In this document: positions 15,099 to 24,257 of the stretch, one piece after another
Numbering within the stretch: position 1 is the stretch's first letter
Layout: every line of letters begins with the position of its first letter
From: Candidatus Alectryocaccobium stercorigallinarum
Lineage (GTDB): Bacteria; Bacillota; Clostridia; Lachnospirales; Lachnospiraceae
Length of the DNA stretch: 42,870 nt
Assembly: GCA_018713465.1 (NCBI GenBank)
Contig: DVOP01000025.1
Coordinates: 1 to 42,870 of the forward strand
Reading direction: 5' to 3'
Position numbers and translations under genes: made by a program
Notes under the pieces: generated by a model
Seen by the model: the letters and a program-made list of their open reading frames with translations, nothing else
Databases searched by the model: none
Told to the model about the DNA's origin: nothing

Positions 15099-15118
15099 TA
15101 TGATACAAGGGTTACAAA

Positions 15119-15154
15119 GTAATGCATATTTCTGCTTGCATGAATATGCATTAC
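15119..15154 (+). promoter_or_regulatory. 11-bp perfect hairpin in the GOGAT-glnA intergenic region
   Basis: GTAATGCATAT (15119-15129) pairs with ATATGCATTAC (15144-15154). No U-tract follows. It competes with GCTTGCA(15134-15140)/TGCAAGC(15157-15163) and with CTGCTT(15132-15137)/AAGCAG(15179-15184). Confidence 0.45.
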
Positions 15155-15224
15155 CTTGCAAGCCGAACAAGCATGAGGAAGCAGCTATTTTTCAAAGAAA
15201 AATGAGCGATTCCGAATGATTGTA

Positions 15225-15256
15225 GTATTGCGGGAGCACGAAGTGCAGAGCAATAC
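15225..15256 (+). promoter_or_regulatory. composite hairpin 45 nt upstream of the glnA start
   Basis: GTATTGC(15225-15231)/GCAATAC(15250-15256) encloses GCAC-GAA-GTGC. No U-tract follows. Confidence 0.4.
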
Positions 15257-15301
15257 GTAGTATCATCATAAAAATCGATTATTAAGAAAGGCAGAAATAT
15301 A

Positions 15302-16553: not shown

Positions 16554-17138
16554 GTGGATCTTAAAGAACAGATTTACAGTATTCTGATAGTTTCCGCGTC
16601 AGAAAATATTAATAACGCCCTTTTTTCCCTCCTTCCGGAATCAAAATACGGCCCTGTCCGTACCGTATCAGACATCAGCGCCGCCAAAAGAGCATTTTTG
16701 GAGCGCAATTTTGATTTTATTATAATCAACTCGCCTCTTCCCGACGATTCGGGAATAAGCTTCGCGATAGACTCGAGCGACTCCAAAAACACCGTGGTGC
16801 TGCTTCTTGTACGCTCCGAGCTGTACGAGGAAACAAGATTTAAGACAGAAAAGTTCGGTGTTTTTACGCTTGCGAAGCCTTCGTCAAAATCGGTCATCTC
16901 CCTGGCTTTTTCGTGGATGTCAGCAACAAGGGAAAAACTGCGCAAGTATGAAAAGAAAACGCTCACAATAGAAGAGAAAATGAAAGAGATACGTATCGTC
17001 AACCGAGCTAAATGGATACTTATTTCCGAGCTGAAGATGAGCGAGCCTGACGCGCACCGTTATATCGAAAAGCAGGCAATGGATCAGTGTGTTTCCAAAA
17101 CACAGATAGCTGAAACTATAATAAAAACTTATTCATAA
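16554..17138 (+). CDS. ANTAR-domain RNA-binding antiterminator with a degenerate (pseudo-)receiver domain
   Basis: 194 aa. GTG start with AAGGAGGGG 4 nt upstream. The C-terminal segment IRIVNRAKWILISELKMSEPDAHRYIEKQAMDQCVSKTQIAETII matches the ANTAR pattern. In the N-terminal CheY-like fold, the acidic pair is replaced by Ser-Ala (ILIVSASEN) and the phospho-acceptor Asp by Asn59 (FIIINSPLP, codon 16728-16730). Confidence 0.85.
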   Translation: MDLKEQIYSILIVSASENINNALFSLLPESKYGPVRTVSDISAAKRAFLERNFDFIIINSPLPDDSGISFAIDSSDSKNTVVLLLVRSELYEETRFKTEKFGVFTLAKPSSKSVISLAFSWMSATREKLRKYEKKTLTIEEKMKEIRIVNRAKWILISELKMSEPDAHRYIEKQAMDQCVSKTQIAETIIKTYS

Positions 17139-17150
17139 TGCCGAAAACCT

Positions 17151-17188
17151 TAAAAACAAGGAGCCCCCGCGCGGGGCTCCCTCTTTTT
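17151..17188. terminator. bidirectional rho-independent terminator between the convergent ANTAR and carB genes
   Basis: GGGAGCCCC (17159-17167) pairs with GGGGCTCCC (17173-17181). TCTTTTT follows on the plus strand and TTGTTTTT on the minus strand. Confidence 0.85.
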
Positions 17189-17196
17189 CGGCTTTT

Positions 17197-18051
17197 TCAA
17201 TACTCAAATTCTCCGGTAAATACCGTTACCGCCTCGCCGGACAGTACTATCCTGTCGTCGCTGTAATTTACCGTCAGATCGCCGCCGAGCAGCTTTACGG
17301 TTATATCCGTGTTTTTCTCACAATACCCGTTCGCTACCGCTGCCGCTGCCGCCGCGCACGCGCCGGTACCGCATGCAAGAGTCTCTCCGTTGCCTCTCTC
17401 CCACACCCGCATTCTTAACGTCGTCGAATTCACAATGCGTACAAATTCCGTATTTATGCGCTCAGGGAATATTTCGGCATGTTCGAATTTCGGCCCAATG
17501 TCTTCTGTCTTTATATTATTTACCGAATCCAAAAAAACTACGCAGTGCGGGTTTCCTACAGAAACGCATGTGACCTTATATTCTTTTTTATCTATCTTAA
17601 GCGGATAACCGATCATCTTTTTGGCGTCGCATACCGCCGGAAGCTCTTTTACGTCAAAGCTCGCCCTGCCCATGTCTGCAGCTACCGTATTTACCTTTCC
17701 GTCCCTCACATATGCGCGGATCTTGTGCACGCCGCTCGCCGTTTCTATGTTCATAAATTCACTGCGTATATATCCGTTGTCATAGAGGTATTTTGCAACG
17801 CAGCGGATACTGTTGCCGGCCATTTTCCCCTCTGAACCGTCTTTATTGAATATGCGCATTTTAGCGTCGGCTTTCGCGGATTTTTCAATAAGCACTATCC
17901 CGTCGGCCCCTATGCCGTAATGCTGCTGGCAAAGCGTTACGCACAATGATTCCGGACACGATATCTCGTTGTCGAAATTTTCGATATAAATATAATCATT
18001 TCCGCACGAATGCATCTTCGTGAATTTTATTTTCGTACGCCACATTCGCAT
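17197..18051 (-). other. DapF-like domain of the CarB fusion protein
   Basis: Motifs FTKMHSCGNDYIYI, IFNKDGSEGKMAGNSIRC, GNPHCVVF and ERGNGETLACGTGACA, about 284 aa in total. No stop codon and no SD-like sequence separates it from the CarB part. Confidence 0.8.
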
Positions 18052-21000
18052 GTCGTTAAGGTCTACAAGCTCCGTATTATCGAGGCTGTAATGGCTTATG
18101 AGCATATTTGCGAGCGCCTCGGCTGTATCAAGGCTCGTAAGACACGGTATTCCAAGCTGCATTGCCTTTATATGCAGTTTTTTAAATTTTTTTATCGTTT
18201 CCGCCGTCACTGCTCCCGCGTAAATAATATAGTTTATCTTTCCCTCGCTCATAAGATCGAATATCTCATCGCTCTTATCGCTTCCGGCGACGGTAACGAC
18301 GTCTATATCCATCGCCTTTACAGCCGCCGCTGTTTCTTTTGTCGCATACATGACCATTCCGATATCCGAGAATTTTTTAGCTATCGAGAAAAATTCCTGA
18401 CAGTCGTTTTCCGAAACAGACAGAAATACGCCAATTTTTTGACGGCCGGTTGAAACGGGGACCGCAAGCCCTGCCGCCGTAAGCCCCTTGAACAGAGCTT
18501 CCTCGGTGGATTTCCCGATCCCGAGCACTTCTCCCGTGGACTTCATTTCAGGTCCTAAAAGCGCGTTGACGTCGTATAGCTTTTCAAACGAAAATACCGG
18601 CACCTTTACCGCATAATACGGCGGAGTCCTGTAAAGTCCCGTGCCGTAGCCAAGATCAGTCAGCCTGGCTCCGAGCATGACTTTCGAAGCAAGGTCGACC
18701 ATAGGCACGTTCGTTACCTTGCTTATGTACGGAACTGTCCTTGAAGCGCGCGGATTTACCTCGATAACATACAGCTCGTCCTTATATATGAGATACTGTA
18801 TATTTACAAGCCCCTTTGTCTTAAGCGCAAGCGCTAATTTTTCAGAGACATCGCATATCTTTCTTAAAAATTTGTCGCTGAGATTATAAGGCGGATAAAC
18901 CGCGATGGAATCCCCCGAATGTATGCCCGCTCTTTCGATATGCTCCATGATACCGGGTATGAGCACGTCTTCGCCGTCCGATATAACGTCCACCTCCAGC
19001 TCGGTCCCCGGCATGTATTTATCTACAAGCACCGGGTTATCTATACCCTGCGCAAGTATCGCGGACATGTATTTTTTTGTGTCCTCTTCGGTATTGGCTA
19101 TAGTCATGTTCTGGCCGCCTATAACATAGCTCGGACGCAAAAGCACCGGATAACCCAGCGTCTTCGCCGCCTCGAGCGCTTCCTCCAGCGAAGCTACCCC
19201 GGCCCCTTTTGGCCTTCTTATCCCGAACTGCTCAAGAAGGGCGTCGAACCTCGCCCTGTCCTCAGCTATATCGATACTTTCCGCCGAAGTACCGAGTATC
19301 CGTATTCCCTGCTTATCCAAGAATTCCGTCAGCTTTATCGCCGTCTGTCCGCCGAACGCCACGACGACGCATATCGGCTTTTCGACCTTGATTATGTTCA
19401 TCACATCTTCCGGGCAGAGCGGTTCAAAATAAAGCCTGTCCGCCGTGTCATAATCCGTAGACACTGTTTCCGGGTTGTTGTTTACTATAACTACGTCATA
19501 TCCCATATCCCGCAGTGTCCATACGCAGTGTACCGAAGAATAGTCGAATTCTATACCCTGCCCTATCCTTATAGGTCCGGAGCCAAGCACCATTACGACC
19601 GGCTTTCCTGAACGCTTAAAGCTTCTCGCTTCGCATATCTTATCTGCCGACGAATAAAAATACGGGGTTTCCGCGTCAAATTCCGCACCGCACGTATCAA
19701 CCATCTTGTAAACAAAGTCAAACCCGGGAAGCTGTTTTACTCCTGTAAGGGCGCTTATCGCGCTGTCGGTATAGCCGAGCTTCTTCGCACGATTATAATC
19801 CTCGTCCGATATGCTGCCATATCCGTCATTAAGCTTCAGTTCAAAGCCGGCAAGGCCTTTTAATTTATATAAGAACCATTCGTCTATCTTCGTTACGGAG
19901 TGTATCTCGTCGACTGATACGCCTTCTTTTAAGGCCTCAAATACGGTAAAAAGCCTCCTGTCGTTCTGGTCGTGAAGCCTTTCCGTCACAGGGCGATCAT
20001 CTAACGGCTCGGCGTTAAGTGTCTCAAGTCCTGTTTCCGCTCCCCTGACCGCTTTTAAAAGAGCCATTTCAAAACTTCCGGCTATAGCCATTACCTCGCC
20101 CGTGGCTTTCATCTGCGTGCCAAGCTTCCGGCTGCTGCCCGCGAATTTATCGAACGGCCACTTCGGCAGCTTCACTACGACATAATCAAGCGTAGGCTCA
20201 AAGCATGCGCATGTCTTTCCGGTTATATCGTTTTTTATCTCGTCGAGATAATATCCCAGCGCTATCTTCGTTGTTATCTTCGCTATAGGATATCCCGTAG
20301 CCTTGCTTGCGAGCGCTGACGAGCGTGACACCCTCGGGTTGACTTCAATGACCGCATATTCAAAGCTTTCAGGATCCAGCGCGAACTGGCAGTTGCAGCC
20401 GCCGACTATATTAAGCGCCGTTATCATTTCGAGCGAAGCGCTCCTTAACATCTGGTATTCCTTATCCGCGAGGGTAAGCGCAGGCGCGACTACGATACTG
20501 TCGCCGGTATGCACTCCTACCGGATCAAAATTTTCCATCGAACAGACGGCTATTACGTTTCCGGCCGCGTCGCGCATAGTCTCAAATTCTATCTCTTTCC
20601 AGCCCGCTATACTCTTTTCCACAAGTATCTGGGTTATGGGCGACATATCAAGACCCGTCCTTGCTATTACTGCAAGCTCGTCCTCATTTTCCGCAATTCC
20701 TCCGCCGCTGCCTCCAAGCGTAAACGCAGGGCGCACTATTACAGGATATCCTATATCCCTTGCCGCCTTTAACGCCTCCTCCAGCGTATTCGCGATTTCT
20801 GACGGAACTACGGGCTGGCCTATGCTCTTCATAGTTTCCCTGAAAAGCTCCCTGTCCTCGGCCCGGTCTATCGCTTCTATATCTGAGCCTAAAAGCCTCA
20901 CGTTATATTTTTCTAGGACCCCGGCCTTGCCAAGCTGCATGGCTATCGTCAGTCCTGTCTGTCCCCCGAGTCCGGCAAGTATCCCGTCAGGCCTTTCTTT

Positions 21001-21237
21001 TGCGATTATCCGTTCGACGGTTTCGGCGTTCAGCGGCTCGAGATATATCTCATCGGCCATAGCCTTATCGGTCATTATAGTAGCGGGATTTGAATTTACA
21101 AGCACGACGTTTATGCCCTCGTCTTTTAACACCCGGCACGCCTGCGCCCCGGCATAGTCAAACTCGGCGGCCTGTCCGATAACTATCGGTCCCGAACCTA
21201 TGACAAGGACCTTTCGTATACTTTTATCCTTTGGCAT
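17197..21237 (-). CDS. carB: carbamoyl-phosphate synthase large subunit fused in frame to a C-terminal DapF-like (diaminopimelate epimerase fold) domain
   Basis: Single 1346-codon ORF. Residues 1 to about 1062 are full-length CarB (VLVIGSGPIVIGQAAEFDYAG..., a second ATP-grasp VMVLGSGPIRIGQGIEFDY..., and the MGS-like tail). Residues from about 1063 to 1346 carry the DapF motifs. The start overlaps the carA stop (TAATG). Confidence 0.9.
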   Translation of the reverse strand: MPKDKSIRKVLVIGSGPIVIGQAAEFDYAGAQACRVLKDEGINVVLVNSNPATIMTDKAMADEIYLEPLNAETVERIIAKERPDGILAGLGGQTGLTIAMQLGKAGVLEKYNVRLLGSDIEAIDRAEDRELFRETMKSIGQPVVPSEIANTLEEALKAARDIGYPVIVRPAFTLGGSGGGIAENEDELAVIARTGLDMSPITQILVEKSIAGWKEIEFETMRDAAGNVIAVCSMENFDPVGVHTGDSIVVAPALTLADKEYQMLRSASLEMITALNIVGGCNCQFALDPESFEYAVIEVNPRVSRSSALASKATGYPIAKITTKIALGYYLDEIKNDITGKTCACFEPTLDYVVVKLPKWPFDKFAGSSRKLGTQMKATGEVMAIAGSFEMALLKAVRGAETGLETLNAEPLDDRPVTERLHDQNDRRLFTVFEALKEGVSVDEIHSVTKIDEWFLYKLKGLAGFELKLNDGYGSISDEDYNRAKKLGYTDSAISALTGVKQLPGFDFVYKMVDTCGAEFDAETPYFYSSADKICEARSFKRSGKPVVMVLGSGPIRIGQGIEFDYSSVHCVWTLRDMGYDVVIVNNNPETVSTDYDTADRLYFEPLCPEDVMNIIKVEKPICVVVAFGGQTAIKLTEFLDKQGIRILGTSAESIDIAEDRARFDALLEQFGIRRPKGAGVASLEEALEAAKTLGYPVLLRPSYVIGGQNMTIANTEEDTKKYMSAILAQGIDNPVLVDKYMPGTELEVDVISDGEDVLIPGIMEHIERAGIHSGDSIAVYPPYNLSDKFLRKICDVSEKLALALKTKGLVNIQYLIYKDELYVIEVNPRASRTVPYISKVTNVPMVDLASKVMLGARLTDLGYGTGLYRTPPYYAVKVPVFSFEKLYDVNALLGPEMKSTGEVLGIGKSTEEALFKGLTAAGLAVPVSTGRQKIGVFLSVSENDCQEFFSIAKKFSDIGMVMYATKETAAAVKAMDIDVVTVAGSDKSDEIFDLMSEGKINYIIYAGAVTAETIKKFKKLHIKAMQLGIPCLTSLDTAEALANMLISHYSLDNTELVDLNDMRMWRTKIKFTKMHSCGNDYIYIENFDNEISCPESLCVTLCQQHYGIGADGIVLIEKSAKADAKMRIFNKDGSEGKMAGNSIRCVAKYLYDNGYIRSEFMNIETASGVHKIRAYVRDGKVNTVAADMGRASFDVKELPAVCDAKKMIGYPLKIDKKEYKVTCVSVGNPHCVVFLDSVNNIKTEDIGPKFEHAEIFPERINTEFVRIVNSTTLRMRVWERGNGETLACGTGACAAAAAAVANGYCEKNTDITVKLLGGDLTVNYSDDRIVLSGEAVTVFTGEFEY

Positions 21238-22316
21238 TATTTATTCCTCCTCATCAGATCAATAAATTTTCCGAACAGAAAACCTGTGTCTTTCGGTCCG
21301 CCGCAGGCCTCCGGGTGGAACTGCACTGTAAAGCACATTTTTTCCGGATATTCCATTCCCTCGCAGCTCATATCGTTCGCATTATAAAAAATCTCTCTTC
21401 CCACACCTCTTAAGCTTTCGGAAACTACCGCGTAGCCGTGGTTCTGGCTTGTTATATACGTTCTGCAGCCGTATACCTCTTTTACAGGCTGGTTCGCGCC
21501 TCTGTGTCCGTATTTGAGCTTTATCGTCTCTCCGCCCATCGCCAAGGCTGTAAGCTGATGTCCTAAGCATATGCCGAACACCGGTACTTTTCCCAAAAGT
21601 TTTTTTATCTGTTCTATGCTGTATGAGTTGTCCTTCGGGTCTCCCGGGCCATTTGAAAGCATTATCCCGTCCGGGCAGCCGGCCAATATATTTTCCGCCG
21701 GAGTATCGTATGGCACGACTTTGACATCACAGTTTAAATTTTGCAGAGAGGTTATTATATTTTTCTTCGCGCCGTAATCTATAAGCGTAACATCGTACAT
21801 TTTATGTCCTTTCGCAGGAAAGACTGATATGCCGCTCCTGCTGACCTGCGCCACCACATCGGACGCCTTATATCCTGATAAGCGGCTTTTTATACTGCGA
21901 AGCTCCTCATCGGAGATCCCTGAGCATATCGCCGCGTTCATTACCCCTTCTTCTCTTATTATCTTTGTAACGGCCCTCGTATCTATGCCGCATATCCCCG
22001 GGATATCGTTATCTTTTAAAAATCTGCCTGCCGTATCCTCACATCTGAAATTCGACGGCGTTTCGCAGAGCTCGCGCACGATATATCCTTTAAGCGCGCA
22101 CTTCCCTTCAAAATCTTCCTTCGTTATCCCGTAATTTCCAATAAGAGGAAAGGTCTGCATAACTATCTGACCCGCATAGCTCGGATCGGTAAGCGTTTCG
22201 GTATATCCGGCCATGCCGGTCGTAAAAACAAGCTCGCCTACAGTATCCCTGTCTGAACCTATGCGCTCCCCTTCAAATATTTCTCCGTTTTCCAATATTA
22301 AATATGCCTTAGACAC
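21237..22316 (-). CDS. carA: carbamoyl-phosphate synthase small subunit (glutamine amidotransferase)
   Basis: 359 aa counted from the GTG at 22316 (GGAGG 5 nt upstream). N-terminal SKAYLILENGEIFEG, plus triad GATase motifs GICLGHQ and the HP of FHPE. The ATG at 22346 in the ORF track has no RBS. Confidence 0.92.
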   Translation of the reverse strand: MSKAYLILENGEIFEGERIGSDRDTVGELVFTTGMAGYTETLTDPSYAGQIVMQTFPLIGNYGITKEDFEGKCALKGYIVRELCETPSNFRCEDTAGRFLKDNDIPGICGIDTRAVTKIIREEGVMNAAICSGISDEELRSIKSRLSGYKASDVVAQVSRSGISVFPAKGHKMYDVTLIDYGAKKNIITSLQNLNCDVKVVPYDTPAENILAGCPDGIMLSNGPGDPKDNSYSIEQIKKLLGKVPVFGICLGHQLTALAMGGETIKLKYGHRGANQPVKEVYGCRTYITSQNHGYAVVSESLRGVGREIFYNANDMSCEGMEYPEKMCFTVQFHPEACGGPKDTGFLFGKFIDLMRRNK

Positions 22317-22342
22317 GACGACCTCCAAATTACAGCATTGCA

Positions 22343-22380
22343 GCATTAAAAACCGCAGCGAAAACAGCGGTTTTTAATGC
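22343..22380 (-). terminator. 14-bp perfect hairpin between amt::PII and carA (probable, possibly leaky, terminator)
   Basis: On the minus strand: GCATTAAAAACCGC-TGTTTTCGCT-GCGGTTTTTAATGC. The T5 run lies inside the 3' arm, so a shorter CCGC/GCGG+T5 form would behave as a terminator. Confidence 0.5.
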
Positions 22381-22409: not shown

Positions 22410-22778
22410 TCAGTTATCTTCAGGATTCAGGTCCTGAAGCGCCTGATATCCGTGTTCTCCTGTACGGATCTTTACAACGTCCTCGACGTCATAAACAAAT
22501 ATCTTTCCGTCTCCGTATTTTCCGGTATACAGACATTCGCGAACCGCTTCTATAAGCGTATCTACCGGTATCATGCTTACTACGACCTCAAGCTTGATCT
22601 TCGGAAGAAGACGTGAATCAACAGGATTTCCCCTGAAGTATACGGAATGTCCCTTCTGATATCCGTATCCGAGCACGTTTGTAACCGTGATTCCCGTAAT
22701 GCCAAGATCGTCAAGCACAGTCTGCAGCTGAGGAAATTTATTCTGATTGATAATAATGCTTACCTTAGTTATCTTCGC
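22410..22778 (-). other. PII signal-transduction domain of the Amt fusion protein
   Basis: KITKVSIIINQNKFPQLQTVLDDLGITGITVTNVLGYGYQKGHSVYFRGNPVDSRLLPKIKLEVVV...GKYGDGKIFVYDVEDVVKIRTGE. This has the PII beta-alpha-beta pattern, a short T-loop and the C-terminal GDGKIFV motif. Confidence 0.8.
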
Positions 22779-24188
22779 TCCCGCCGTTTCGTGATGTTCT
22801 ACAGGAACGGCTTTATCCACGCTTACCGCCTCTGTCATGTCAGAGTCAGCAGTATATGAAGCGGCTGCTTTTCCATATTCTTTTTCCAGTTCAGCGACGA
22901 TATCGCTTCTGTGTTCATAAGACTCTGCAACTCTTACAAAATCAGGATAAGCGATGTTTCCATGCTCTCCGATATCAAGACCCTGTATCTCTTCCTCGCT
23001 CGAAACACGTATTCCCATCGTCGCCTTGATAAGGAGCCATACGACGGCCGACGCCGCGAATGTAAAGCCGCCTATCGCGGCAATGCCTATGAGCTGTACT
23101 CCGAGAAGTCCGAAACCGCCGCCAAAAAACAGGCCGTTAGTTGTTGAAAGCGATGTGACTCCCTCCTGCGCGAAAAGCCCTACGCAGATAGTTCCGAAAA
23201 CGCCGCAGCAAAGATGTACGGACGTAGCTCCGACCGGATCGTCTATTCTGCAGCGGTCAAAGAATCCGACCGCAAATACTACAAGTATTCCGGAAACTGC
23301 GCCTATCAGGATAGAAATCTCAATGGAAACGTACGCACAGCTGCCGGTAATTCCTACAAGCCCGGCAAGACAGCCGTTTATTGTCATGCCAAGATCCGGC
23401 TTTTTGAGCACTATCCACGAGGTTATAGTCGAAGTAAGCACCGCGACTATTGCCGAGGTATTTGTTGTCAAAAGGATATGCATAACGTCCGTCGGATTCT
23501 GGAAGCTCATTGTAGAGCCCGGGTTGAATCCGAACCAGCCGAGCCAGAGAACGAAAAGTCCAATGACCGCAAGCGACATGCTGTGTCCCGGTATAGCTCT
23601 CGGCTTCCTGTCTTTTCCGTATTTTCCAATTCTCGGCCCAAGCAGCATAGCTCCGGCAAGAGCTGCCCAGCCGCCTACCGAGTGAACGACCGAATCGCCC
23701 GCGAAATCCATAAACCCAAGATCGGCGAGCCAGCCGCCGCCCCATACCCAATGGCCTACTATCGGGTAAATAACAAGCGTAAGCACGAATGAGAACACTA
23801 TGAACGAAACATATTTAACGCGCTCCGCTACGGCTCCGGAAACGATCGTCGCCGCCGTGCCGCAGAACACAAGCTGGAAGAAGAACTTGCCCCAGAACGG
23901 AACGCTTGACGTCAGCGTGCCGTCATAAAACGAAAGATCCTGTCCTCCTAAGATGAACAAATGCTCTGTTCCGATTATCGGGTTATCGCCTCCGAACATT
24001 ATGCCCCAGCCTAAGAGCATAAATCCGAGCGATGAGACCGCAAACACGATAAAGTTCTTTGAAAGAATATTTACCGTATTCTTTGATCTCGCAAAGCCCG
24101 CTTCGACGCTGGCAAAACCGAGGTTCATAAAGAACACCAAAATAGCCGCCAGAAAGACCCATAAAGTGTCGATCAAAGAAAATTCCAT
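22410..24188 (-). CDS. amt: ammonium transporter (Amt family) fused to a C-terminal PII (GlnB/GlnK-like) domain
   Basis: 592 aa counted from the ATG at 24188 (AAAGAGGGG upstream). Amt motifs are present (FASVEAGFARSKN; twin His in DSVVHSVGGW and SVHLCCGVFG). A linker of about 60 aa follows, then a PII fold. Confidence 0.9.
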   Translation of the reverse strand: MEFSLIDTLWVFLAAILVFFMNLGFASVEAGFARSKNTVNILSKNFIVFAVSSLGFMLLGWGIMFGGDNPIIGTEHLFILGGQDLSFYDGTLTSSVPFWGKFFFQLVFCGTAATIVSGAVAERVKYVSFIVFSFVLTLVIYPIVGHWVWGGGWLADLGFMDFAGDSVVHSVGGWAALAGAMLLGPRIGKYGKDRKPRAIPGHSMSLAVIGLFVLWLGWFGFNPGSTMSFQNPTDVMHILLTTNTSAIVAVLTSTITSWIVLKKPDLGMTINGCLAGLVGITGSCAYVSIEISILIGAVSGILVVFAVGFFDRCRIDDPVGATSVHLCCGVFGTICVGLFAQEGVTSLSTTNGLFFGGGFGLLGVQLIGIAAIGGFTFAASAVVWLLIKATMGIRVSSEEEIQGLDIGEHGNIAYPDFVRVAESYEHRSDIVAELEKEYGKAAASYTADSDMTEAVSVDKAVPVEHHETAGAKITKVSIIINQNKFPQLQTVLDDLGITGITVTNVLGYGYQKGHSVYFRGNPVDSRLLPKIKLEVVVSMIPVDTLIEAVRECLYTGKYGDGKIFVYDVEDVVKIRTGEHGYQALQDLNPEDN

Positions 24189-24219
24189 AATAACTACCCC
24201 TCTTTCCAAAAAAATGTAC

Positions 24220-24257
24220 AAAAAAAGCAAAGGCGCTTCTTTCGAAACGTCTTTGCT
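24220..24257 (-). terminator. intrinsic terminator inside the amt::PII 5' leader
   Basis: On the minus strand: AGCAAAGACGTTTC-GAAA-GAAGCGCCTTTGCT, 13 pairs plus one A/C mismatch with a GNRA tetraloop, followed by T7. Confidence 0.8.

Follow-up and report, generated by a model that had tools for sequence, protein, structure and literature searches.

The window analysed here, a stretch of DNA of 42,870 nucleotides, carries a nitrogen supercluster composed of a purF-like gene, pyrG, asnB, GS-III, split GOGAT, GS, a gene for an ANTAR response regulator, a carB::dapF fusion, carA and a gene for an ammonium transporter fused to PII (amt-PII). The features relevant for this work are located as follows.

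16554..17138, plus strand: ANTAR response regulator (Pfam ANTAR)
17158..17182, no strand assigned: bidirectional intrinsic-terminator-like hairpin (terminator scan; 10-bp stem, 7 GC pairs, T-runs on both strands)
17197..21237, minus strand: carB::dapF open reading frame, 1346 aa, stop codon included in the coordinates (ORF list and translation)
18100..21237, minus strand: CarB part, aa 1-1046 (Pfam and NCBIfam matches, alignment to E. coli CarB)
18031..18099, minus strand: linker, aa 1047-1069, about 20 residues, containing SLDNTELVDLNDMRMWRTK and beginning where E. coli CarB ends
17200..18030, minus strand: DapF-fold domain, single-thiol variant, aa 1070-1346 (TIGR00652, PF01678, AlphaFold, Foldseek)
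17818..17820, minus strand: GCC codon of Ala1140 (domain residue 78), at the position of H. influenzae Cys73 (alignment to solved DapFs)
17371..17373, minus strand: TGC codon of Cys1289 (domain residue 227), the retained second catalytic cysteine, H. influenzae Cys217
21237..22346, minus strand: carA, CPSase small subunit, whose stop overlaps the carB start (Pfam CPSase_sm_chain and GATase on the identical locus L001)
22410..24230, minus strand: ammonium transporter fused to PII (Pfam Ammonium_transp and P-II), first gene of the amt-carA-carB::dapF unit
24298-24270, minus strand: promoter-like site 5' of the amt-PII gene

The hairpin is situated between the carB::dapF gene and the convergent ANTAR gene. 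An ANTAR gene adjoins dapF also in related clusters with canonical dapF, and the adjacency was found in loci L095-L097 and L092. The pyrG gene of the window is flanked by asnB and the purF-like gene, whereas pyrG of its relatives has dapF and dapL as neighbours. Neither a second dapF, nor dapL or any other gene of the DAP/lysine pathway, was found in the 42.9-kb window.

Architecture of the CarB::DapF protein

The CarB part consists of two ATP-grasp halves, an oligomerisation domain and a MGS-like allosteric domain, as recognised by Pfam and NCBIfam, and it matches the CarB profile NF003671 over residues 1-1046 with 1439.8 bits (cut-off 599). All ATP-grasp residues checked in the alignment to E. 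coli CarB are kept (E215, N283, Q285, E299, N301, R303, E761, Q829, E841 and N843). Judged by the full-length profile match and the conserved residues of both ATP-grasp sites, this part is complete and intact. The nucleotide-effector pocket has diverged in the window protein (K954 to C, K993 to G, N1015 to Y, T1016 to A and T1017 to G in the same alignment). Loss of this effector site in step with the loss of the DapF cysteine described below was considered and rejected, as the divergence of the pocket is not clade-wide.

The first DapF strand follows immediately after the linker stretch SLDNTELVDLNDMRMWRTK. The DapF profile TIGR00652 (cut-off 114.65) covers residues 1070-1344 with 274.9 bits in the full protein and gives 279.9 bits with the isolated domain, while PF01678 reaches 196.4 bits on the domain (cut-off 34.7). 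The AlphaFold model of the domain has pLDDT of 91.5. Its best Foldseek match is 9mro_A, DapF with aziDAP (TM 0.91, rmsd 1.7 A), and the top 26 matches are all DapF or DcsC. Profiles of three other families stayed below their cut-offs: bifunctional DapF/glutamate racemase of Chlamydia type (NF038284, 124.1 bits against 350), trans-3-hydroxy-L-proline dehydratase (NF047722, 15.1 bits against 550) and the proline racemase family (PF05544, 16.9 bits against 27). The domain resembles the proline racemase and trans-3-hydroxy-L-proline dehydratase family in fold only. When residues 930-1346 were modelled together, AlphaFold returned confident domains joined by a linker (model residues 121-128) with pLDDT below 50, and pTM of only 0.68. 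No fixed docking of DapF on CarB is therefore predicted, and the linker is apparently flexible in the model.

Replacement of the first catalytic cysteine

Two-thiol catalysis by DapF is textbook knowledge, and the enzyme is an antibacterial target. For its reaction, one thiolate and one thiol must face the C-alpha atom from opposite sides (PMC8142540). In the translated DapF domain of the window, IFNKDGSEGKMAGNSIRC stands at the first motif and WERGNGETLACGTGACA at the second. HMMER alignments to three solved DapFs (2otn, 9mro and 3ejx) place alanine exactly under the first catalytic cysteine ('gkmagnsirc' against 'gkscgnglrc') and the retained cysteine under the second one. The initial annotation had claimed that the first catalytic cysteine is replaced by alanine, that the conserved glycine at +3 is serine and that the second cysteine is intact. 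The alignments and the translation bear out all three points for the DapF domain, the second cysteine being Cys1289. The alanine codon is GCC and lies two substitutions from TGY, as had been stated; its position, previously given as 17817-17819, was one base off and is in fact 17818-17820. Profile alignment and structural comparison to DapF, proposed there as a check, gave a match to PF01678 and a Foldseek TM of 0.91, with alanine at the Cys73 position. Since four independent contigs encode the very same protein, sequencing error is excluded as the cause of the alanine.

A conserved cysteine that could replace Cys73 was sought in the DapF-domain alignment of the clade described below, and none was found. 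Relocation of the cysteine to the N-terminal motif (Cys16; HSCGNDY against HGLGNDF) was rejected: among 150 representatives of canonical two-Cys DapFs, where cysteine is common at this position, it holds C in 42, L in 39, A in 28, I in 12 and T in 7, and within the Ala clade C, T, S, N, L or A occur. Being variable in both, Cys16 is not a compensating change. The only frequent clade-specific cysteine (90%) is Cys32, located in the 'CPESLC' helix at the alpha-1 N-cap; its counterpart in H. influenzae DapF is Thr26, which we take not to be an active-site residue. Residue 81 may be S, N, A or C in the Ala/Gly clade. As far as can be read from the alignments, the L-face in this clade is left without a consistently available protein group. 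With alanine in place of Cys73 and no other conserved cysteine to replace it, the earlier claim that the canonical two-thiol mechanism would not be possible is supported.

With canonical DapFs (EC 5.1.1.7; for example B. anthracis 2OTN and cyanobacterial 9MRO) the domain has in common the two-lobed fold (TM 0.87-0.91), the full set of DAP-contacting residues and the second catalytic cysteine at a helix N-terminus, at a sequence identity of about 40-43%. The domain differs from them by alanine (glycine in some relatives) in place of the first cysteine, by attachment to CarB, by absence of dapL linkage and by clade-specific fixed changes: C25 to N, x56 to E, Q205 to R, G81 to S/N and the new 'CPESLC' helix. 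Substituted catalytic positions are also found in the H. influenzae mutants C73S (2Q9H) and C217S (2Q9J), which are among the Foldseek matches and whose overall structure is unchanged, and in the E. coli C73A/C217A double mutant, altered at the same position and without detectable activity (PMC6061791). Those engineered proteins are laboratory loss-of-function mutants, in contrast to the present domain, which is natural and selected across dozens of species.

Distribution and origin of the Ala/Gly clade

The replacement is well established at the sequence level and reaches far beyond this one window. In the 120 database proteins closest to the window protein, the Cys73 position holds Ala 116 times, Gly 3 times and Cys once. 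Among 80 best-matching GTDB species representatives (one genome per species, best 80 loci, one locus per genome) the corresponding counts are 63, 13 and 4, and at 78 of the 80 loci dapF is in frame with carB or reaches the contig end. These loci belong to Oscillospiraceae, Ruminococcaceae, Acutalibacteraceae and Oscillibacter, as well as to Ca. Borkfalkia, Ca. Scatosoma, Ca. Gallimonas and Christensenella-labelled MAGs; the carriers all come from anoxic gut, rumen or digester samples. All four alanine codons are in use at the position (GCG 29, GCC 10, GCA 5, GCT 4), next to GGC 8, GGT 1 and TGC 3. Serine or threonine was never seen there in about 200 sequences.

Conservation was compared between approximately 200 Ala/Gly sequences and 137 canonical ones. 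The second catalytic cysteine is present in 99% of either group, its codons being TGC (54) and TGT (6), and synonymous turnover is visible at both the Ala and the Cys codons. The pocket residues N18, N69, G79, N80, N167, H169, N200, E218, R219, C227, G228 and T229 (domain numbering) are conserved to at least 80% in both groups, and C78 is the sole active-site residue that is conserved in canonical DapFs and lost in the Ala/Gly group. The DAP contacts of the H. influenzae enzyme, namely Asn11, Asn64, Gly74, Asn75, Asn157, His159, Asn190, Glu208, Arg209, Gly218 and Ser/Thr219, all recur in the window protein and are conserved across its clade; they were mapped to H. influenzae numbering by motif, and their roles are those that we presume for that enzyme. 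For pairs with unsaturated dS, omega of the DapF part is 0.03-0.09 and that of CarB 0.006-0.05. The ratio dN(DapF)/dN(CarB) is 1.38 in Ala-Ala pairs, 1.79 in Gly-Gly pairs and 1.28 in Cys-Cys pairs; the Ala-Ala value compared with the Cys-Cys value gives no sign of relaxed constraint. Omega, pocket conservation and codon turnover mark the domain as a selected functional entity and not a decaying one. On these comparisons, loss of Cys73 is a clade character, fixed and kept under purifying selection.

The Ala/Gly sequences form one clade in neighbour-joining trees, which are simple distance trees without bootstrap support. Its sister group comprises CarB::DapF fusions with both cysteines, together with the standalone P0119. 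Fusions of this Cys type are P0125 (1349 aa), L063, L077 and L086, with P0122, P0124 and P0144 as fragments. They share with the Ala/Gly fusions the architecture, the linker motif (NTEL-D-N), the bacterial orders and carA upstream; unlike these, they retain MCGN(G/A), and dapL comes directly after them. The gene for LL-diaminopimelate aminotransferase (dapL), which scores 507-536 bits on TIGR03542 (cut-off 364.7), immediately follows dapF at 4/4 Cys-type GTDB loci, three of which are fusions, compared with 0/76 Ala/Gly loci with dapL within 5 kb. This contrast probably reflects one evolutionary event.

Closest canonical standalone relatives lie in nitrogen-assimilation clusters. Their gene orders are GOGAT-dapF-pyrG-dapL-GS-ANTAR-gdh (L004), GOGAT-GS-ANTAR-dapF-pyrG-nadE-dapL (L095-L097) and pyrG-dapF-dapL (L094 and L083). 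In a related organism with canonical ANTAR-dapF-pyrG-nadE-dapL, GltB and PyrG are 79% and 74% identical to those of the window; one NCBI MAG with this arrangement, CALWPT01, is absent among the 80 assemblies of the GTDB scan. The supercluster of the window is of the same kind. Most other Ala/Gly species show a different setting: an OTCase-like gene followed by carA and carB::dapF was found in 49 of the roughly 60 loci whose upstream DNA was long enough. No conserved gene was found downstream of the Ala/Gly fusions, only lineage-specific synteny (membrane protein, NifS-like, ThiI-like).

Because the sister fusions retain both cysteines and dapL, the fusion seems to have started out with both enzyme activities, two-base epimerisation being abandoned later in one lineage. 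On the same grounds, the two-Cys fusions presumably combine genuine CPSase and DAP epimerase functions in one protein. Four steps make up the most economical history. A housekeeping dapF located beside dapL would first have been fused to carB, resulting in a working bifunctional enzyme encoded in the order carA-carB::dapF-dapL. One descendant lineage would then have replaced Cys73 by Ala (later by Gly in places) and dropped the dapL linkage, and this lineage would finally have radiated, so as to be spread now across Oscillospirales and Christensenellales of gut and rumen. The resulting ordered series, from standalone dapF-dapL through carB::dapF(Cys)-dapL to carB::dapF(Ala/Gly) without dapL, presents a clean system for the study of racemase repurposing.

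The only real standalone Ala-type dapF is P0116/L092, which has 35 cluster members, lies directly after an ANTAR gene and is nested inside the clade. Four other candidates were rejected. P0012/L005 is a truncated argF joined to the last carB codons, P0101 is part of an intact fusion overlooked by the gene caller, P0022/L091 is split only by a scaffold N-gap, and P0087/L093 has an in-frame TAG in the linker and a carB frameshift. Truncated argF joined to a carB tail, with the DapF part intact, was found at two independent junctions, in L005 and, in frame, in P0123.

Possible functions of the single-thiol domain

We propose, with a probability of roughly 40%, that the domain is a non-epimerising, DAP-binding module. 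It would be a neo-functionalised descendant of genuine DapF that has lost Cys73, the L-face base, and that still folds as closed DapF, keeping the residues which hold both ends of DAP together with the D-face thiol. Going by its pocket residues, the domain has very probably kept the ability to bind DAP or a very close analogue of it. Since one D-face thiol acting on plain DAP can only exchange a proton, a module that binds DAP without epimerising it is favoured. Binding would be stereoselective, the ligand closing the two lobes over the retained cysteine, and the module, attached to CPSase and expressed with it from arginine or nitrogen operons, would report or buffer the cell-wall/lysine precursor pool with no conversion. 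The domain may accordingly be read as a DAP sensor tying CPSase and nitrogen flow to cell-wall precursor supply. We infer all three components of this proposal: DAP as the ligand, absence of epimerase activity and a regulatory output.

The proposal is favoured by alanine fixed at the Cys73 position, the intact pocket, purifying selection, the DapF fold, the missing dapL linkage, ancestry from Cys-type fusions and the window pyrG, which stands without dapF and dapL neighbours. Precedents are the inactive E. coli C73A/C217A mutant and the role of E. coli DapF as a non-catalytic activator of RppH (PMC6061791). In the latter case DapF likewise acts by binding rather than catalysis, although it is still a full epimerase, with a partner and a biology that have nothing to do with CPSase. 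On the other hand, Cys227, His169 and Glu218 are conserved equally, as would be expected if the domain were a catalyst; in pure sensors the loss usually extends beyond a single catalytic residue. DAP control of CPSase is so far without physiological rationale, absence of epimerase activity is extrapolated from engineered mutants of other species, and the dapL contrast weighs less if it stems from one event. A single C73A mutant described by Koo et al. in 2000 is said to be inactive and yet to catalyse eliminations.

The initial annotation had suggested a ligand-binding or regulatory module that modulates CPSase. Its move away from ordinary epimerisation is strengthened by the distribution of dapL, whereas an obligatory allosteric role for CPSase is weakened by the flexible modelled linker, the two-Cys basal fusions, the free-standing Ala-type copy P0116 and the two argF-carB junctions that leave the DapF part intact. 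Linker and free-standing copy speak against tight coupling of an allosteric kind. Since the basal fusions are ordinary two-Cys enzymes, the fusion as such does not imply regulation. All these results are compatible with regulation in trans.

Of the rival explanations, the likeliest is a single-base enzyme with new chemistry, an alternative that the initial annotation had also raised and which we nevertheless regard as rather unlikely. Cys227 would abstract or deliver one D-face proton on a DAP-like substrate, for example in elimination from beta- or N-substituted DAP or in stereospecific protonation of a planar intermediate. Parallels for one-base chemistry are trans-3-hydroxy-L-proline dehydratase and arylmalonate decarboxylase, compared with their racemase relatives. 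In the former, Cys replacement turns an epimerase into a one-base enzyme; Cys-to-Thr converts it to a dehydratase, and single-Cys racemase mutants catalyse eliminations (PMC8142540), both of which serve as precedents here. The dehydratase has the fold of the superfamily (Foldseek 6r76 and 4k7g) and one of its two catalytic cysteines is naturally replaced, but it shares only 15-17% identity with the present domain, has Thr at the Cys position and acts on a cyclic imino acid. Foldseek returns dehydratase and PhzF folds also for the window domain, although the match to the dehydratase profile is negligible.

That exactly one catalytic residue changed, with the other catalytic and binding residues at canonical conservation and under strong purifying selection, fits such an enzyme, and the occurrence of Ala or Gly only, never Ser or Thr, suggests selection for an empty L-face. 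The standalone copy and the flexible tether point to autonomous activity. However, the pocket is identical to that for plain DAP, these organisms are not known to contain any natural DAP derivative that carries a suitable leaving group, Ala and Gly give no acid to help a leaving group, and a conserved partner gene downstream is missing.

It is also conceivable, but unlikely, that the domain is still the DAP epimerase of the organism, with the reaction unchanged, the fused gene as housekeeping dapF and a non-protein second base (ordered water or hydrosulfide) accommodated in the Cys73 cavity. This is the most economical account of why everything but Cys73 is conserved as in working DapFs, and the fused gene descends from dapF of a nitrogen cluster, not from an obvious extra copy. 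The lack of a second dapF in the window, the strict requirement for a small residue, as expected of a cavity, and the anoxic habitats of all carriers, with hydrosulfide abundant in gut and rumen, agree with it as well. Against it stand the lost dapL linkage, the very little room that Ala leaves for water or HS- beside C-beta and the absence of a conserved residue to position such a base, position 81 being S, N, A or C. We know of no natural racemase with a small-molecule base. An engineered Cys-to-Ala DapF, the double mutant mentioned above, is inactive (PMC6061791). The full claim, that these anaerobes have no DapF besides the Ala/Gly form and that this form works as an epimerase with water or hydrosulfide as the second base, is distinctly improbable; if true, it would represent a naturally 'chemically rescued' cofactor-independent racemase.

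An inert relic, kept as a structural or solubility appendage of CarB, is very improbable. In its favour, the catalytic cysteine is gone, the domain is almost always fused, and DapF would be dispensable if meso-DAP were made otherwise or LL-DAP walls were used, as in Christensenella, but the idea is disfavoured and contradicted by the selection data, namely the conserved pocket residues and second cysteine, the low omega, a rate relative to CarB matching that of Cys-type fusions and the synonymous turnover at Ala and Cys codons, and by persistence of the domain where carB is truncated or deleted (L005, P0123 and P0116). Christensenella species contain LL-DAP in their wall (10.1101/2020.11.14.383166), so that in some carriers at least, epimerisation may be needed only for lysine.

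No description of a CarB-DapF fusion or of natural Cys73 replacement in DapF was found in the literature searched. MAG records name the Ala-type fragments 'diaminopimelate epimerase'. As the single-thiol domain scores far above the equivalog cut-off used by annotation pipelines, equivalog-level 'dapF' annotation is unsafe in these taxa, and in the clade many automatic 'dapF' annotations probably stand for something other than a normal epimerase. For Oscillospiraceae, Borkfalkia, Christensenella-like and related gut taxa, metabolic reconstructions may thus credit lysine and peptidoglycan synthesis with an absent or altered activity.

Nitrogen gene supercluster and its RNA element

One 21 kb segment of the window codes for little else than enzymes that assimilate ammonia or use glutamine. 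Its members are a purF-like amidotransferase gene, pyrG, asnB, the gene of a type III glutamine synthetase (GS), a five-gene split GOGAT, a GS gene, an ANTAR response regulator gene, the carB-dapF fusion (whose DapF domain has Ala at the first catalytic Cys position), carA and amt-PII. A similar cluster of related organisms also includes canonical dapF and dapL. A Clostridiales-1 RNA motif (RF01699), matched over its full length at 106.5 bits (cut-off 48 bits), sits between glnA and the last GOGAT subunit gene and is adjoined by the ANTAR regulator gene. For the nitrogen cluster, this element could serve as the leader or as a target of anti-termination.

2936-24230: nitrogen supercluster
15101-15265, + strand: Clostridiales-1 RNA motif (RF01699)

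Effector pocket and clade-specific residues of the fusion

In the CarB allosteric domain of the fusion protein, the changed residues relative to E. coli CarB are K954->C, K993->G, N1015->Y, T1016->A, T1017->G and D1025->K, at positions where the E. coli enzyme binds UMP/IMP by its phosphate and ribose; most members of the clade of DapF domains with Ala or Gly at the first Cys position retain K/R and T there. In the DapF domain, coordinated clade-specific changes lie remote from the active site: canonical DapFs of Firmicutes commonly have a Cys25/Cys56 pair, which is Asn25/Glu56 here, and a new Cys-rich helix, "SCPESLCVTLC", has appeared (C32 in 90%, C37 in 59% and C41 in 70%). An interface, redox or metal role of these DapF changes is possible.

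18100-18450: CarB allosteric domain (aa 930-1046), effector-pocket residues replaced
About 17929-17977 and 17884-17886: DapF domain residues 25, 56 and 31-41

Free-standing, divergent and rearranged DapF

A genuine standalone Ala-type DapF, P0116, is encoded immediately 3' of an ANTAR gene (locus L092, 826-2228). It is nested phylogenetically within the fused clade; because its first ~45 residues resemble canonical DapFs (IDC..., LSDRHFGIGGDG), recombination may have contributed to this sequence. Two further architectures come from the representative library. P0193 joins a DapL-type aminotransferase and a canonical DapF in one protein. In P0145, a DapF of very divergent sequence is fused to CarB and likewise has Ala at the Cys73 position; it is placed outside the main Ala clade and may represent a second independent loss of this cysteine.

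At two independent junctions, the 5' part of an ornithine carbamoyltransferase (OTCase) gene runs into the carB 3' end, and the whole DapF part is preserved in both. The one in P0123 is in frame, giving OTCase_N (1-128), the CarB allosteric domain and a Gly-type DapF; the one in locus L005 (9414-10855) is out of frame, with a split ABC-transporter gene nearby. These junctions may be true carA-carB deletions or assembly chimeras.

Misannotation in a common gut species

In a species very common in human gut, whose protein is indexed in 154 collection blocks, the gene caller placed an 811-aa antisense ORF across carB and reported just the last 272 aa as "DapF". Pfam gave no match for the antisense ORF. 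The true gene in L007 is an intact 1346-aa fusion; the L006 copy is deleted or frameshifted.

L006, 4189-6624: antisense ORF across carB
L007, 1830-4265: antisense ORF across carB
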